From Promethearchaeota archaeon (GTDB taxonomy: Archaea; Asgardarchaeota; Lokiarchaeia; Sigyniarchaeales; SOKP01): a DNA stretch of 10,126 nt. Under the pieces are notes generated by a model, which worked only from the letters and a program-made list of their open reading frames with translations, searched no databases and was not told where the DNA came from. The DNA lies in contig JBHLME010000092.1 in NCBI GenBank assembly GCA_048938445.1, forward strand, positions 1 to 10,126, read 5' to 3'. Every line of letters begins with the position of its first letter. Positions within the stretch are counted from its first letter, which is position 1. Below are positions 2,415-10,126 of this stretch, piece by piece. The position numbers and the translations under genes were made by a program.

Positions 2415-2519
2415 TTAAAAAATTAAATTTATTATAAAAAGAAAGAGAAATCCCATGGTGAATAAACTTGCTATTCCTATGATAGCAATTATAATTTCAT
2501 ACCATAATTTAACATTCAT
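2415..2519 (-). CDS. 34-aa hydrophobic membrane micro-protein, copy A (not in ORF track): MNVKLWYEIIIAIIGIASLFTMGFLFLFIINLIF
   Basis: ATG at 2519, TAA at 2417-2415, purine-rich leader GAGGGCAAGGGAAA-ATG. It is 27/34 aa identical to copy B, with 13 synonymous codon differences. Confidence 0.85.
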   Translation of the reverse strand: MNVKLWYEIIIAIIGIASLFTMGFLFLFIINLIF

Positions 2520-2572
2520 TTTCCCTTGCCCTCCAATATAATAAAAGTAATTCAACATGTAATAAAAAAATT

Positions 2573-2641
2573 TCATTTTCGAGTTTTCTTTTTAACATTA
2601 AGGTAGGCATATGGCTATTTATTCTTGAATCATAAATATTA
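2573..2641 (-). pseudogene. Possible decayed remnant of the carbonic anhydrase 3' end
   Basis: Reads ...KKKTRK-TGA against ...KKKSQK-TGA in the intact gene, with the stop the same 53 nt upstream of the micro-protein ATG. Further upstream there is a net 2-nt indel and an in-frame stop. Confidence 0.45.
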
Positions 2642-2878: not shown

Positions 2879-4558
2879 ATGCGGCTAAGGACAATTTTAA
2901 TGATTATTTTAGTATTAATAAGTGTAATTATTCAGCTTTTTGGAATACCCTTTATAGGTTTTTTTCAATCAAGTCATGATCTGGAATTTAATTATATTTA
3001 TAATTGGAATTTAGTTGGAACTGGGGGTTATTACGATGGTTATTCTGAGACCTTTAAAGCAGAAGGAAACTACAAGATAGATTTTAATGGGAATATAGGT
3101 AATGTTTCTGGTACTGTATCATGGACTTGGACTGAAAATGATTATGGCAACGTAATATCTTCAATTGATAATTATATCTTCTCATATTCATTACTCAATG
3201 GATCCTACATTTGGGGTACAGATCAAGATGAGATTGACACATCGGGATTAAATGTCTGGTTTCACATTCCACAAGGATTATCCGCACAAAACAGAGGAAT
3301 TTTAGATGCGAATTATACTCTTAGTGGACCTTCAACCTTTTGGGCTGGGAAACTAGTACCATTTTTGAGTGTAAAATTGTATTCAATAGGAACTTTTGAG
3401 AGAGATGATGAATATGGACAGTTTACTGCTAATTATATTTCTGAATATCATTTTACTCCATGTGGTTACTTATTAGGAGAACTCTGGACAGAAACAGATC
3501 GTGGATTTGACAAGGATACTGGAAGGTGGTCAGAATTTAACATAAATTCTTATGTGTGCGTAACATCGGCTAATTACATTCGACCATTTGATTTTTTGAT
3601 ATATTTTCTTACTTATTGGTCATGGATATTCATTATTGGTGTTCTATTATTCATAGTATATGAAAAATATAGATGGAGAACTCGCTATGTTTCTGGAGAA
3701 CTTAAAGCATCAAAGGATATTGTTATTGAGAGAAATCTGCCAAAAAATGCACAATTATCTATTTCATCAAAATATGTGGAATGTATACCTGCTTACTTAA
3801 CTAATGCGAATTTACAAGATAAACTAATTATTTCAGCCTATTCTCAAGACAAAATCTTTGGAATTGGTTTTATAGAACAAAAGCGAAGAGTAGGAACTTT
3901 TTTTGGAACATATATAAATGAAATGGTCAAGTTTAGTAAAGTGAAATATGCTTTTTGTGAATATGAGAACGTTGGTAAATTAAAAATAATTGAAGAATAT
4001 AACATTTTTCAGATTAATGATATACAAAATCAAGAATATAACTATGATGCCACCCTCATTAGATCCGGGACAGATTTTTATTTACCAGCAATAATGAAAT
4101 TAATTGCTAATGAAGATTATGGTCGTAAACGTATAAAAAGGACAAAATGGGTCAAAGAAGCAGCAAAAAATGATATTATCGTAGTAGCAACTGCAAAAAG
4201 AGATGACGAGTGGATTAAAGATATATTATATGAGGTACATTCAAGAAATTACCCAAAACCAGAAGGACATCTTGATGAAATTCTTCTTGGCGTAGGATTT
4301 GCCACACCTGGAGATATAACCGGATGGCTTTATGGGTTATACGTTCATCCTGCATTTAGAAATTTTGGAATTGGGAGAAATTTAATGATGGCACGGTTAT
4401 CAATGTTAAAGGAAATTGGAGTTAATAACGTTATAACAGAAATTGCTGATTGGAATGGTCCTGCAAAAAGTATATACAAGCATATCAACGCAGAAATCAT
4501 TGGAAAAATGAAACTTTTTGGAAGAAAAATGCCTAAAGTAAAGGTGAGAAGATATTGA
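2879..4558 (+). CDS. Membrane-spanning protein: signal/TM, beta-rich ectodomain, TM, cytoplasmic GNAT acetyltransferase (probably tandem, first copy degenerate)
   Basis: Hydrophobic N-terminus; second TM FLIYFLTYWSWIFIIGVLLFIVY followed by EKYRWR; GNAT motif A LYVHPAFRNFGIGRNLM and motif B VITEIADWNGPAKSIYK. I prefer ATG 2879 over TTG 2864 because GAGGA (2866-2870) sits 8 nt upstream. Confidence 0.85.
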   Translation: MRLRTILMIILVLISVIIQLFGIPFIGFFQSSHDLEFNYIYNWNLVGTGGYYDGYSETFKAEGNYKIDFNGNIGNVSGTVSWTWTENDYGNVISSIDNYIFSYSLLNGSYIWGTDQDEIDTSGLNVWFHIPQGLSAQNRGILDANYTLSGPSTFWAGKLVPFLSVKLYSIGTFERDDEYGQFTANYISEYHFTPCGYLLGELWTETDRGFDKDTGRWSEFNINSYVCVTSANYIRPFDFLIYFLTYWSWIFIIGVLLFIVYEKYRWRTRYVSGELKASKDIVIERNLPKNAQLSISSKYVECIPAYLTNANLQDKLIISAYSQDKIFGIGFIEQKRRVGTFFGTYINEMVKFSKVKYAFCEYENVGKLKIIEEYNIFQINDIQNQEYNYDATLIRSGTDFYLPAIMKLIANEDYGRKRIKRTKWVKEAAKNDIIVVATAKRDDEWIKDILYEVHSRNYPKPEGHLDEILLGVGFATPGDITGWLYGLYVHPAFRNFGIGRNLMMARLSMLKEIGVNNVITEIADWNGPAKSIYKHINAEIIGKMKLFGRKMPKVKVRRY

Positions 4559-5751
4559 CTTCCGTTTCTTTAAATAAAAAGGATATATATACAGAGTATT
4601 TAATGAATTCGAGAAATATAGAATTATATGAATGTTTTTCCCAAGATATTCAAATTAATCCTCAATTTAAATCACTTAAACAATGGATAAAAGTATATTT
4701 AGGACCCGCAACAGCAGATCTACATGGTATTCATAATAATAAAGTAAATGCGATTAGAGACGAAAATCGAAATGCCATTATTCCAGATCGACAATATATC
4801 ATAAATAATAGAAATTTTTACCTATCTGTTAAAGGATGTGGTGCTTATGAAGACATGTTTAACGGCGGAGAATTAAATCCAGATAAAATTAAAAAAGCTT
4901 GTAGAGATCCTTTATTGATTCAAAAAATTAACAATTTATCTACTGGATTGGGCTTTATCATGGCAGAATCATGGTTAGGAGAAAGTCCGTATGGTGCTCA
5001 AGGATTCATGAATGGTTTTGATGAATTGAAGTTTTCAATGGTTGCTGAAAAAAATTCTATAAATGGTGCTTATATTTGTCCAGTTATTGGAATAGTAAAA
5101 CTCCCAAAAAAAATAGAAGAGGTCGCTAGAAAATTTTTTTATTTTAGAACATATCAAGAACATTTTTATCAAGTCATTCGACTTGTTCCTTCAAGAGCAA
5201 GATTATATTTTGAATCATCTCATACTATAGCTGATCCAATTAATTTATTTTCAATTTTTGGAATTAAAACTCCAGAAGAGGTAGAACTCTTTGAACTCAA
5301 TTTTATAAAAAGCGGAATAGCTTTATTATCCCTATTTTCGCGATCCGCTAAAATTATAGGTAATAAAATATCGGGAATTGTATATCAAGATGTATGGATG
5401 GATAAGGATTGTATTGTGGCTCCGGATGGAATTATTCACTTTGCTGATTTAGAAGGTTTAATTTGGAAAAAAACTACCTATGATAACTTTCCAAAAATCC
5501 AGAAGATCGAGTGGGAAAAATTAGTTTTTGAGTTTTTATTTGCTCTAGTTAAAATTGATGATTACAGGCATTATTTATTAGAAGATAAAATAGAATGGGA
5601 AAAACAACGTAAGGAACTCGCACTTTATGTTCAGCTTTCATTAGATAAAGATCTATATGCATATCCAAAAGAAAAAAATGGGGATTTAAAAATTATAATT
5701 GAAGGACCCGAACTTCCTTCTGTTGAAGTCATGTTCTTAGAAAAGGTGTGA
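4555..5751 (+). CDS. Atypical protein-kinase-fold protein, remote SelO/YdiU-like (putative AMPylase or kinase)
   Basis: TTG start overlaps the previous TGA, with SD GGTGA at 4543-4547. Motifs in order: LSVKGCG, DELKFS, IRLVPSRARLYFE, QDVWMDKD...ADLEG. These compare with SelO LKGAG, RE, RVAPSHLRFGHFE and HGVMNTDN...DYG. The ORF is secure but the family is inferred. Confidence 0.65.
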   Translation: MTSVSLNKKDIYTEYLMNSRNIELYECFSQDIQINPQFKSLKQWIKVYLGPATADLHGIHNNKVNAIRDENRNAIIPDRQYIINNRNFYLSVKGCGAYEDMFNGGELNPDKIKKACRDPLLIQKINNLSTGLGFIMAESWLGESPYGAQGFMNGFDELKFSMVAEKNSINGAYICPVIGIVKLPKKIEEVARKFFYFRTYQEHFYQVIRLVPSRARLYFESSHTIADPINLFSIFGIKTPEEVELFELNFIKSGIALLSLFSRSAKIIGNKISGIVYQDVWMDKDCIVAPDGIIHFADLEGLIWKKTTYDNFPKIQKIEWEKLVFEFLFALVKIDDYRHYLLEDKIEWEKQRKELALYVQLSLDKDLYAYPKEKNGDLKIIIEGPELPSVEVMFLEKV

Positions 5752-5757
5752 AATTAA

Positions 5758-7209
5758 ATGAAATGTGAAAGAGCGCTAAAAATCTTATTAAATGTGAAAA
5801 GTGGTTTTGATATTAAATTAAATCAGGAAGAAATTGAAGAATTAATTCAACTCGGATTTGTTTCTTTATTTGAATTGCCTGTTGGTAATATTGATTTAGA
5901 TGAGGAATTGAGTAATCTTAAAAATAAGTATGTTCAAACGTCTGCTGAATTGAGAAAGCTTAGTAAAGAGATCATAGGAATTAAAGGGGATTATAACCAA
6001 CTCTTTAAATACAAGAAATTATTTGGGTTGCTTTCACTAAGAAAAATAATAAAATTAAAATTCCATTTAAAAGAATTAAAAGGAAAATCATTAGAAAAAG
6101 AAGATCAATTATATTTCTTTAAAAATCGCATATTAAACTTAAATGCAGAAAAAAAAGCTTTTAAAAATGCCATAAAGGTAAATGGAAAGCGAATTTCTCT
6201 TACTCCCTTGGGGGATACCTATATTGATGAAATTAAGGCAAGGAAGCGATTTTTTTCAAAAGATTTGATTGAAATAGTAAATCTTATCGAAAAACTTGAT
6301 GATCAATATTCAAGACTTTTAAATCAATTGGAAAATTTAATGAAAAGGAATTATTTTACACCAATATGGGGTTTATTTTTCATGAATATGGGAATGGTGA
6401 AACTGGGGAGTATCATGAATAGTATTACAAATAAATATTATTGGCCTAAAGCTCAAAAAAAAATGATGAAATTATCCATCAGTCAGTTAATAGATCCAAC
6501 TACAATTAATACAAGGTCTGCTACCATAACTTTAAATGAATATTCAAGCCACAATCCTTCAGAAAAATTAAATAGAATGTTTTATAAGAATAATCTTAAT
6601 ACTTATCTTAAACCTTTCAATGAAATAATCGAATTCATGGGGAATTTATTTGTAGCTTCATTTCTTGATTTCGATCCAGCAGAAAATGAAACTAATAAAT
6701 TTCTTGAACAACTAGATAATCATTTAAAAAATCAAATAATTAAAACTAAGAATAAAAAATATACAACAGCATCGCTATTAATCTTAGCTTTATCTCCAAA
6801 TCCCGAGAAATATCAATATTTTAATACTTTATTTACTGAAGCTCCAAATGGAAAAGAAATTTTTTCAACAATCGCCACGTTATTTCCATGGGATGTAGAG
6901 GAAACTTGGATGGTTTTATTACGAGCGGAATCTGTCATATTAAGAGCTCAAAGTGCAAAATTTATTCCTGAACTACTCGTATATGCATTATTATTAACTA
7001 TGAACCCAAGTATCCTTAATATAGAAGAGAATCTTGAAATGGAGGACTTAAAAAGATGGAGGTATTTAATCATACCCACAATCCATTTATTGAATTATGG
7101 TTTAATGGAAGAAGGTCTTGAAACTTATGTTAAAAGCAGACCATTAGCTTATATCATTTCTCCAAGATATCGAGTATATTCTTCACTACATTATCACAGA
7201 ATTGGGTGA
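5758..7209 (+). CDS. Hypothetical protein: N-terminal winged-helix-like unit interrupted by a long coiled coil, then a helical C-terminal domain of unknown function
   Basis: 483-aa ORF starting 6 nt after the previous stop, SD GGTG at 5745-5748. EELIQLGFV (aa 27-35) and ISLTPLG (aa 146-152) bracket a heptad-rich K/E/L segment. Confidence 0.7.
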   Translation: MKCERALKILLNVKSGFDIKLNQEEIEELIQLGFVSLFELPVGNIDLDEELSNLKNKYVQTSAELRKLSKEIIGIKGDYNQLFKYKKLFGLLSLRKIIKLKFHLKELKGKSLEKEDQLYFFKNRILNLNAEKKAFKNAIKVNGKRISLTPLGDTYIDEIKARKRFFSKDLIEIVNLIEKLDDQYSRLLNQLENLMKRNYFTPIWGLFFMNMGMVKLGSIMNSITNKYYWPKAQKKMMKLSISQLIDPTTINTRSATITLNEYSSHNPSEKLNRMFYKNNLNTYLKPFNEIIEFMGNLFVASFLDFDPAENETNKFLEQLDNHLKNQIIKTKNKKYTTASLLILALSPNPEKYQYFNTLFTEAPNGKEIFSTIATLFPWDVEETWMVLLRAESVILRAQSAKFIPELLVYALLLTMNPSILNIEENLEMEDLKRWRYLIIPTIHLLNYGLMEEGLETYVKSRPLAYIISPRYRVYSSLHYHRIG

Positions 7210-7261: not shown

Positions 7262-7372
7262 TTAGATCAAGAATATAATGTTTATGATAAATAGAAAAAG
7301 AAAACCCATGGTAAACAATCCTGCCATTCCAATTATAGCCATTATGATTTCATACAATTGTTTAGCGTTCAT
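7262..7372 (-). CDS. 36-aa hydrophobic membrane micro-protein, copy B (not in ORF track): MNAKQLYEIIMAIIGMAGLFTMGFLFLFIINIIFLI
   Basis: ATG at 7372, TAA at 7264-7262, same GAGGGCAAGGGAAA leader as copy A, and 53 nt downstream of the carbonic anhydrase stop. Confidence 0.85.
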   Translation of the reverse strand: MNAKQLYEIIMAIIGMAGLFTMGFLFLFIINIIFLI

Positions 7373-7492
7373 TTTCCCTTGCCCTCTAATTTTATAAAAT
7401 CAACAAAGTTATGGATTAAAAAAAATCATTTTTGAGATTTCTTTTTTATTAACATGGGAACACGGATATTTATTTTTGGTATATAAATTTTA
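7268..7492. repeat. Diverged direct repeat, right copy (partner 2415..2641)
   Basis: Colinear similarity to the left copy across the peptide gene, its leader and the last codons of the carbonic anhydrase gene. Confidence 0.75.
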
Positions 7493-8373: not shown

Positions 8374-9552
8374 TCATTTTACTTTATTAATTAGTTCCTT
8401 CAATTTTTTAGGATTTCCATTTCCGAAGAAGTTTTTTATCTGATCAGAATATTCAGGTAATAATTGTAGGAATGGCAATATTGCTTTTGATAGTGAATTA
8501 AATGCATTTTCACCATCTCCCATAATGAACATCTTTTCTGGCTTCATATTTTTGAATATTTCTGGTAAGATATTAGTTAATTGAACCGCTAAAAATCTTT
8601 CATCAGCAGCACTCATGGATTCAACTTGGTTTAAAAAACCTTCAGCTTGAGCTACCATTTGTTGCCTAATACTTTCCGCTTCTCCTTCAGCTTGAGCTAC
8701 TAAAGTCTTTTTGATCTTTTGAGCTTCAGCTTCAGCTTCAATAACTTTCTTTTGTCGCTCACCATCAGCCTCAATTTTCTTACGTTCACGTTCTAAATCA
8801 GCAACAGCAATTTCTTTTTGTACTCTTTGAGTCTCGATTTGCCTGAAAACGTTCTGTTCTTCAATTCCAACTTCATTCTGTACTTCTAATTCTCGTAACC
8901 GTGATTCTCTCTCCGCAGTAGCCATCGAAATTCGCGCCTTTCTGGCTTCCTCCGCTTTTTTAGTAGCTTCCATGTTTTCTTTTAATTTAGGCTCTAAAAT
9001 GATTACTTCTCTGATTTCAATTGATTCTATAACTATACCCCAATCAGATGTTAATTCATGTAATTCCTTGCTAATACCCTTGATAATATCCCTGCGTTCT
9101 CGAATGATTTTTTCGAGCTCCATGTTAGCACAGGTGGTCCTAATAATTGCTTCTGCAGCATTTTTTAATATTTTTTCTACATAATTGTCATTATTTGTAC
9201 TCCAAGATACAGCACTAAATGCTTTCTCAGGATCAATTACTTTCCAGATTAACATGCCTGTAATGGAGATATTCTGATATTCTTTAGAAACCACTTGTTC
9301 ATGAGCTTCGAGTATTGTCTGGATACTGGTTGTCGGTATCACGAGATATTCATCTATTAAGGGTAATAACCAGAGGCTACCTCCAAGACCCGCATGTTTA
9401 ACCTTTCCATTACGCAAATGTATTACAAATTGGTTTGTTTTGAACTTTCTATATCGCGTAGCCATAAAAATGATAAATAGTAATACTACAATGACTATCG
9501 CTACTACGGCACTAACTATTAATATCTGGATATCTGGAACCATTTGGAACAT
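8374..9552 (-). CDS. SPFH (band 7)/flotillin-like membrane protein
   Basis: N-terminal TM, SPFH core (IRTTCANMELEKII..R, WGIVIESIEIREV), then an Ala/Glu-rich coiled coil (IEAEAEA, AQAEGEAE). It lies downstream of an NfeD-like gene, and a purine-rich GAGG leader occupies 9553-9584. Confidence 0.92.
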   Translation of the reverse strand: MFQMVPDIQILIVSAVVAIVIVVLLFIIFMATRYRKFKTNQFVIHLRNGKVKHAGLGGSLWLLPLIDEYLVIPTTSIQTILEAHEQVVSKEYQNISITGMLIWKVIDPEKAFSAVSWSTNNDNYVEKILKNAAEAIIRTTCANMELEKIIRERRDIIKGISKELHELTSDWGIVIESIEIREVIILEPKLKENMEATKKAEEARKARISMATAERESRLRELEVQNEVGIEEQNVFRQIETQRVQKEIAVADLERERKKIEADGERQKKVIEAEAEAQKIKKTLVAQAEGEAESIRQQMVAQAEGFLNQVESMSAADERFLAVQLTNILPEIFKNMKPEKMFIMGDGENAFNSLSKAILPFLQLLPEYSDQIKNFFGNGNPKKLKELINKVK

Positions 9553-9584: not shown

Positions 9585-10126
9585 TTATCTTCTAATTAAT
9601 TTTTTATTATTATCTACTAATAGATAACCTTGACGGACATCACAAATGTAAACTCTCGTTCCTTCATCAAATTTCGATTCTGGATTTAAAGGTTTTACAT
9701 GTAATTTTTCAAATTTTAATGGAGTATCAGAACTCACTTTTATTACGCCTCCTCTTTCATCTACATCTAAAATCACTTCTGCTTCCTTCCCTATAAGATT
9801 TTTTGTTGAGGATATTTGATAAAATCTTGATTTCGCCATTTTTCGCCATCCTATAGAGATCAACTTTGTAATTAAGAAAGTTATTCCGGGTGTAATAGGG
9901 AATGCTAAAAATCTTATGGATTCAAAAGTGATGTAACTTGAAATCATTCCTGTTATACCGAAAACTAAGAGAGAAGTAGAAAATAATAACATAAAGGGAG
10001 CAGGAGTTGAATAATCTAAGACATTTGAATCTCCCATTTGACTTTGGCTGTCTATGTGATCGATATGTCCAAAATCTTTATCTAGGTGATCGACATGTCC
10101 AAAATCTTTATCTAGGTGATCGACAT
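9585..10126 (-). CDS. NfeD-like (YqiJ-type) SPFH partner protein, 5'-truncated by the window edge
   Basis: Two TM helices, then an OB-fold-like C-terminus (LIGKEAEV...GGVIKV...GTRVYICDV.QGYLLV). The frame stays open upstream of ATG 10037 to the window end, reading VDHLDKDFGHVDHLDKDFGHIDHIDSQSQ-M. Confidence 0.85.
   Translation of the reverse strand, partial: VDHLDKDFGHVDHLDKDFGHIDHIDSQSQMGDSNVLDYSTPAPFMLLFSTSLLVFGITGMISSYITFESIRFLAFPITPGITFLITKLISIGWRKMAKSRFYQISSTKNLIGKEAEVILDVDERGGVIKVSSDTPLKFEKLHVKPLNPESKFDEGTRVYICDVRQGYLLVDNNKKLIRR
10056..10126. repeat. 30-bp coding tandem repeat (about 2.4 copies visible) encoding HVDHLDKDFG
   Basis: GTGATCGA(T/C)ATGTCCAAAATCTTTATCTAG at 10056-10085 and 10086-10115 (1 mismatch), with a partial third copy at 10116-10126. 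Confidence 0.93.

Follow-up and report, generated by a model that had tools for sequence, protein, structure and literature searches.

Three adjacent, co-oriented genes, here called A, B and C, on a contig of a Promethearchaeota archaeon (GenBank assembly GCA_048938445.1, contig JBHLME010000092.1) are the local form of a conserved, mainly archaeal cassette of four modules. The window analysed is this one complete contig of 10,126 nucleotides (nt), which belongs to an Asgard genome and has a G+C content of about 30%. The modules are a membrane protein with an extracytoplasmic domain (M), a double GNAT (N), a protein whose predicted fold is closest to SelO/YdiU (B) and a coiled-coil protein with a conserved C-terminal tail (C). 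An initial annotation of the locus had described a three-gene system, and the set is indeed conserved, but it really consists of four modules, as gene A is a fusion of the membrane protein and the GNAT that are encoded by separate genes elsewhere.

In a survey of 400 genomes of the phylum, B was found in 37, C in 38 and A at near full length in 35, while the remaining 75 matches to A covered the GNAT motif only. The three genes are adjacent, on the same strand and in the same order in all 21 Asgard loci fetched, one of them from a high-G+C genome in which a divergent C was recognised only via wider clustering. When 185,579 species-representative genomes were scanned for patterns from an 11-sequence alignment of B, 255 stretches with B relatives emerged, and the best 80 of these were fetched and scanned with hidden Markov models of M, N, B and C built in this analysis; the 80 loci were picked by similarity to B and many are interrelated, so the counts are not independent samples. 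By record title, they derive from Thermoplasmatota including Methanomassiliicoccales (32 loci), Bathyarchaeia (21), Asgard archaea (10), bacteria-labelled metagenome-assembled genomes (MAGs; 8), other archaea (7) and Nitrososphaerales (2). Of the 80 loci, 79 contain C, 77 contain N and 73 contain M; the complete set of four occurs in 72, and six of the eight incomplete loci are truncated by contig ends. The co-location expected from the initial annotation thus holds in other genomes, both in the 21 Asgard loci and, across further phyla, in 72 of the 80. All three genes are more than chance open reading frames (ORFs), given dozens of homologues for each and the same cassette in other genomes.

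The order of the modules varies, with M-N-B-C in 36 loci, B-C-M with N on the opposite strand in 31 and C-M-B-N in three, and B and C are neighbours in 75 of the 80. M and N form a single ORF in 37 loci and separate genes elsewhere, indicating that the two work together. In the other phyla, M is a separate protein of ~345 residues with a transmembrane-exodomain-transmembrane layout, which bears a C-terminal zinc ribbon in Bathyarchaeia, and N is a separate soluble GNAT of ~255 residues. Eight cassette loci (L060, L062, L063, L072, L073, L079, L083 and L085) lie in MAGs labelled Sandaracinaceae, Proteobacteria and Acidiferrales, as might result from horizontal transfer or from contigs assigned to the wrong bin; in its architecture, L085 matches two Bathyarchaeia loci. 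Within the window's own genus, A, B and C were absent from all five other genomes searched.

Gene A had been annotated as a transmembrane GNAT, and this description was confirmed by a match to PF00583 at residues 472-534 (E 9.2e-8, 32.8 bits against a cut-off of 20.7) together with two transmembrane segments (residues 5-23 and 241-259), each flanked by basic residues on the cytoplasmic side in the hydropathy analysis. No NCBIfam equivalog reached its cut-off with A. Module M comprises both transmembrane segments and, between them at about residues 24-240, an extracytoplasmic domain with conserved aromatic and acidic residues (Y39, Y52, W82, W127, D115, D177, E201 and E205 among 37 homologues), and module N, at about residues 278-559, is a double GNAT on the cytoplasmic side. 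In the Atlas model, residues 278-559 align with GNAT proteins of 250-295 residues (template modelling scores, normalised by hit, of 0.65-0.81), the closest structures including a cluster auto-named putative mycothiol acetyltransferase, and residues 24-249 align with hypothetical archaeal proteins. R494 and G497 are kept in 37/37 full-length A homologues, and R494-x-x-G497, E521 and N526 in 36-37 of them. With a profile match above cut-off and the R-x-x-G of the CoA-binding motif (R/Q-x-x-G-x-G/A in GNATs), N is a GNAT as judged from its sequence, and its acyl-CoA site appears intact.

Gene B had no match in Pfam, NCBIfam, PADLOC or PDB sequences, and nothing meaningful came from searching PDB sequences with B or C or with the profile of either. 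An exhaustive HMMER scan gave B homologues in 87 representative clusters at 50% identity, 63 of them with E <= 1e-10. No credible Pfam family, PF02696 (SelO/YdiU) included, was present in any of 42 aligned family members, and no fused forms of B (698-2000 residues) were found, which is weak evidence. The AlphaFold2 model built from the 42-member alignment (predicted local distance difference test, pLDDT, 95.3; predicted template modelling score 0.92) was searched with Foldseek, and all nine matches with E <= 0.001 were YdiU/SelO entries (E 8e-6 to 4e-4). The predicted fold of B is therefore closest to SelO/YdiU, and the earlier assignment to a SelO/kinase-fold enzyme was right at the level of the fold.

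The conserved residues of B are R72, K93, G94, Q206, R209, R216, K284, D285 and D298, and among the 42 sequences K93 (SVKGxG), R209 and R216 (RLVPSxxR), K284-D285 and D298 (FADLE) are invariant or near-invariant. Set by eye beside E. coli SelO, the lysine motif of B corresponds to HLKGAG (K107), the arginine pair to RVAPSHLR (R170, R177) with an identical spacing of 7 residues, the catalytic-loop residue D285 (MDKD) to N247 (NTDN) and D298, at the DFG-equivalent position, to D256 (LDYG); from the second arginine to the catalytic-loop residue there are 69 residues in B and 70 in E. coli SelO. According to a review (PMC8097203), in P. syringae SelO the gamma-phosphate of a flipped ATP is held by the equivalent residues Lys113, Arg176 and Arg183, and Mg is bound by Asn253 and Asp262. 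By the same motif correspondence, D298 fits the Mg-binding Asp of SelO, and the counterpart of the Asn would seem to be the invariant D285. B probably has a complete complement of residues for binding phosphate and metal, arranged as in SelO, and is predicted to be catalytically competent, with transfer of a nucleotide monophosphate as its probable reaction.

For gene C, 95 homologues were found, the named ones all from Asgard MAGs and labelled as hypothetical, coiled-coil or generic; none of the 95 carried a Pfam domain, and a Pfam scan of 36 gave coiled-coil noise only. The AlphaFold2 model of C (pLDDT 83.7) has two short helices and a strand (residues 3-38), a 90-residue antiparallel coiled-coil hairpin (47-137), a beta-hairpin and helix (139-161) in which T149 is near-invariant and G152 invariant, and an all-alpha domain (170-460) in which E405 is invariant and E382 near-invariant. 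C had been annotated as a winged helix-turn-helix (wHTH)/coiled-coil protein; the long coiled-coil hairpin is there, whereas the wHTH-like N-terminus, split by the hairpin, is seen in the model only and was unconfirmed by the fold search, whose lists were filled by the hairpin. Foldseek gave no match to C at E <= 0.001, the VIA structure search matched only the hairpin, generically, and the Atlas search, made with a poor Atlas model, gave weak HEAT/ARM-like rows (template modelling scores 0.28-0.45), so that we make no claim of a new fold for residues 170-460.

The C-terminal tail of C (residues 463-483) has a pLDDT <50 and is disordered in the model. H478 is nevertheless invariant in 36/36 aligned sequences from across phyla and H480 is near-invariant, the last ~12 residues following the pattern [H/S][P/S]xHxH...G, as in HPAHVHGVGGFMG, HPVHSHYVYG and SSLHYHVIG. 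Among 76 distinct full-length C proteins, 73 end in Gly and 68 have HxH within the last 22 residues. The three without a terminal Gly all come from the C-M-B-N architecture, in which C ends in ...IRMIYGQ and the tail is found on a separate protein of ~125 residues (L114 5519-5887, L124 5514-5900 and L085 6162-6542) with an N-terminal zinc ribbon (CPxCG...CxxCG), a hydrophobic stretch before the tail and a terminal Gly. Being invariant, disordered and movable between polypeptides, the tail looks like a recognition or modification site. The C proteins of a second Asgard family (L043 9013-10785, L044 8769-10505 and L045 6038-7780) have a long Tyr/Arg/Gly/His-rich low-complexity insert immediately preceding the conserved SSLHHH-IG tail.

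From the gene structure, folds, conserved residues and cross-phylum co-location observed here, we infer each catalytic step, the role of C as substrate and any signalling output, and we tentatively read the cassette, at rather less than even confidence, as a membrane-tethered module for dual protein modification, with B nucleotidylating the tail of C. B would bind ATP or another nucleoside triphosphate in the SelO manner and move the nucleotide monophosphate onto a Tyr, Ser or His of the tail. YdiU is reported to UMPylate Tyr and His, and the Tyr/Ser/His-rich conserved tail of the constant neighbour C would be the obvious acceptor for B. N would acylate C or B with acyl-CoA as the donor, and the extracytoplasmic domain of M would couple the modification to something outside the cell, such that the cassette as a whole may serve in signalling or protein modification. 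Prediction of a B-C complex gave 0.00 in both runs, which says nothing on binding. The broader form of this proposal is slightly more doubtful, namely a widespread and previously undescribed archaeal transmembrane protein-modification system in which an exodomain-bearing GNAT and a new SelO-like nucleotidyltransferase mark the tail with the His motif on a coiled-coil/wHTH-like protein, or ligate it via the Gly at its end; if true, its signalling or conjugation logic would be unrelated to two-component systems, Hanks kinases and ubiquitin-like pathways.

Several points weigh against nucleotidylation of C by B. PF02696 gave no match to B at E <= 0.1, and matched 0/201 Asgard genomes, carriers of B included, against 4/14 control genomes. 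With hhalign, the B profile reached a probability of 3% against E. coli SelO and of 1.5% against a 12-sequence SelO profile that is narrow and enterobacterial, and an unfiltered hmmsearch aligned an unrelated stretch; no deep SelO profile was possible because the relatives of E. coli SelO among the best 120 listed were all at least 79% identical. Given these profile misses and low probabilities, B is best regarded as a new SelO-like family and not as a member of PF02696. The residue correspondence was drawn from motifs and their order and not from a residue-level superposition, B has Asp in place of the metal-binding Asn of SelO, its family alignment shows no evident conserved alpha-C Glu, and it lacks the C-terminal extension of SelO. 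In the fold comparison, NIS siderophore synthetases ranked second, with an alignment that covers more of the length of B (residues 9-398), so a chemistry other than the SelO type is possible. The segment before the tail of C scores as a borderline transmembrane helix in some lineages, which could place the tail outside the cell and beyond the reach of B, and the action of B or N on C is itself something that we infer.

A chemistry of another type might be directed at small molecules or the envelope, with B (as a kinase, nucleotidyltransferase or ligase of small molecules) and N (as an N-acetyltransferase) both acting at the membrane on a lipid head group, an amino sugar or another metabolite, M binding an extracellular product or polymer, and C a structural scaffold. 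The protein-kinase-like fold covers many small-molecule kinases as well as the NIS ligases, the double GNATs closest to residues 278-559 of A include the putative mycothiol acetyltransferase cluster, and the neighbours of the cassette are housekeeping metabolic genes. The M exodomain is rich in conserved aromatic and acidic residues, which are common in glycan-binding domains. We consider this explanation unlikely, as it leaves the conserved C tail and the tight B-C adjacency unexplained, no glycosyltransferase, flippase or lipid-synthesis gene is conserved beside the cassette, and the top fold match is clearly SelO and not a small-molecule kinase. A further alternative is a ligation reaction, in which B would adenylate or phosphorylate the terminal Gly carboxylate of C and the tethered GNAT would transfer C onto an amine of a lipid head group or a protein lysine, a logic like that of ubiquitin-like, Pup or Atg8 conjugation carried out by unrelated enzymes. 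Gly does end most C proteins as well as the split tail proteins, N is held at the membrane via M, and a kinase fold is reported to perform adenylation-dependent glutamylation in SidJ (PMC6858067). Such a ligation is nonetheless improbable, because the usual donors of GNATs are acyl-CoA or aminoacyl-tRNA and not acyl-adenylates, His and not only Gly is the most conserved residue of the tail, neither B nor its aligned family members have an IucA/IucC Pfam match, and the cassette encodes no candidate acceptor.

The same His residues could instead point to metal sensing or handling, with the His (and Met) motif of the tail and E382 and E405 of the helical domain binding a metal ion, and the enzymes regulating, or being regulated by, the metal state. 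The tail motifs, the invariance or near-invariance of H478, H480, E405 and E382, and the zinc-ribbon modules on M or on the split tail protein in some lineages agree with this, but only a single His is strictly invariant, neither a metal transporter nor a known metallochaperone is a conserved part of the cassette, and two transferases are left without a role, such that we rate this explanation a little lower again. The initial annotation had suggested signalling, stress or defence as roles, and defence is the least likely of the three on account of the housekeeping neighbours and the lack of PADLOC matches. GNAT toxins and kinase toxins exist, and a defence or toxin-antitoxin module on a mobile island would account for the patchy occurrence in the family (0/5 other same-genus genomes) and for the position between duplicated ~220-nt segments, at a site that is empty in a same-genus genome. 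This is very improbable, however, since PADLOC-DB 2.0 matched 0/3 cassette proteins at E <= 0.1, the window holds no integrase or transposase, the neighbours in other genomes are housekeeping genes, the cassette is widely retained with conserved architecture in several phyla, and C, at ~490 residues, is not antitoxin-like.

The coordinates of the cassette and its flanking repeats are given in Table 1. The three co-oriented genes, their overlap and gap, and their Shine-Dalgarno-like sites had all been noted initially and were read directly from the sequence. The TGA stop of A (4556-4558) shares TTGA with the TTG start of B (4555), and the stop of B (5749-5751) is followed by 6 nt (AATTAA) and then by the ATG of C. 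Shine-Dalgarno-like sites lie 8 nt 5' of the ATG of A (GAGGA), about 11 nt 5' of the start of B (AGGTGA) and 5' of the start of C (AAGGTG). The direct repeats that bracket A-B-C are ~220 nt each with ~80% identity, the matching segments being 2419-2546 with 7272-7399 (128 nt, 80%) and 2562-2593 with 7415-7446 (84%), both spaced 4853 nt apart. Each copy encodes a hydrophobic peptide of 34-36 residues on the minus strand, in agreement with the opposite-strand genes described there earlier.

Table 1 Coordinates of the cassette genes and flanking repeats in the window
Feature	Position	Strand	Description
Gene A	2879-4558	+	559 residues; alternative TTG start at 2864; fusion of M and N
GNAT core of A	4292-4480	+	Includes the R494-x-x-G497 CoA-binding-type motif
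Gene B	4555-5751	+	398 residues; SelO-like protein-kinase-fold family (predicted)
Gene C	5758-7209	+	483 residues; split wHTH-like N-terminus (model), coiled-coil hairpin, all-alpha domain, tail
C-terminal tail of C	7144-7206	+	Residues 463-483, ...SPRYRVYSSLHYHRIG; disordered in model, invariant H478, terminal Gly
Left direct-repeat copy	2419-2640	.	Small ORF pepL and remnant of the 3' end of the carbonic anhydrase gene
Right direct-repeat copy	7272-7490	.	Small ORF pepR and true 3' end of the carbonic anhydrase gene
Small ORF pepL	2415-2519	minus	Hydrophobic peptide, left repeat
Small ORF pepR	7262-7372	minus	Hydrophobic peptide, right repeat

In the window, the cassette adjoins an operon of NfeD, SPFH, carbonic anhydrase and small-peptide genes. 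A genome of the same genus keeps the NfeD-SPFH-carbonic anhydrase operon and the peptide gene, with no match to A, B or C on its 7.6-kb operon contig, and the other Asgard cassettes have none of the window's flanks, indicating that the cassette was most likely inserted here with duplication of ~220 nt. The repeat-to-repeat joint expected of a cassette-less form was not seen in the public contigs of four sequencing runs, which cannot show its absence, and no integrase or transposase was found within the window. Among the sequencing runs listed as containing the sequence, none was of RNA. In other genomes the neighbours are housekeeping genes that vary between lineages, among them Fwd-like amidohydrolase and molybdopterin subunits, succinyl-CoA ligase, DNA ligase, deoxyhypusine synthase, F420 ligase and acyl-CoA synthetase.

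In a second sediment study, contigs agree with the window rightward of ~2347 and ~2687 and carry other sequence leftward (loose ends, two runs each), a hint of a population variant whose left flank differs. The gene for the 34-36-residue peptide follows that for carbonic anhydrase and is duplicated, so that a copy flanks each end of the cassette; a homologue with 71-79% identity occurs at the same position in the same-genus genome (L137 2311-2412), with no cassette there, and the peptide may be a real small membrane protein of the operon. Elsewhere in the window, 248-1642 encodes an SBBP beta-propeller repeat protein with 156-nt periodic repeats (five copies, 65-77% identity), whose hydrophobic C-terminal end scored below threshold for Loki-CTERM (15.6 bits against a cut-off of 19.9). 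In the SPFH/Band 7 gene, in-frame short repeats at 8639-8739 (CCTTCAGCTTGAGCTAC twice and a variant) correspond to a repeated AQAEGEAE-type coiled-coil segment of the protein, and at 10051-10110 two tandem 30-nt copies (93% identical) lie 5' of the ATG of the NfeD-like ORF; the 5'-open frame, if translated, would yield VDHLDKDFGH as a repeat.

As supposed in the initial annotation, the gene set does not correspond to a named system: it was not found in PADLOC, Pfam, NCBIfam or the literature, a survey that did not extend to supplements and kinase-like family databases (e.g. KINtaro), which could hold B. We regard the system as categorically new as a gene set, with enzymes drawn from known fold superfamilies and a putative function. 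B and C are whole families for which Pfam and NCBIfam have no model, B with at least 255 relatives among species-representative genome contigs, and B would be a new SelO-like family in Asgard archaea, of which none of the 201 genomes sampled was matched by the canonical SelO profile. Retention of the cassette across Asgard archaea, Thermoplasmatota, Bathyarchaeia and Nitrososphaerales suggests a likely unnamed function in archaeal cell biology. C, as the conserved operon partner, is a directly testable candidate substrate, and to our knowledge SelO research has generally lacked candidates of this kind. If the tail were modified or ligated, this would be a new signalling or conjugation chemistry in archaea, including the closest prokaryotic relatives of eukaryotes.

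Among known systems, B resembles SelO/YdiU (PF02696), by motif and order, in the lysine of KGxG, the RxxPSxxR pair with identical spacing and an Asp at the DFG-equivalent position, but has no detectable sequence homology to it, is ~80 residues shorter than E. coli SelO, carries an insertion of ~50 residues after the lysine strand and has conserved cassette partners (the GNAT, the membrane protein and the tail protein) that are not known for SelO. The NIS synthetases (IucA/IucC, AcsD, SbnC, AsbB), at about 550-600 residues in three domains, are ~200 residues longer than B, which has no IucA_IucC Pfam match and no siderophore genes nearby. N resembles two-domain GNAT acyltransferases in its PF00583 match, R-x-x-G motif and Atlas alignments, and differs from them in being fused here to a protein with two transmembrane segments and a conserved extracytoplasmic domain. 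Finally, as in two-component and Ser/Thr-kinase signalling, the cassette combines a domain outside the cell, a membrane span, a transferase in the cytoplasm and a partner that may bind DNA, but it is without HisKA, HATPase, receiver and Pkinase domains, and its transferases are instead a GNAT and a SelO-like protein.

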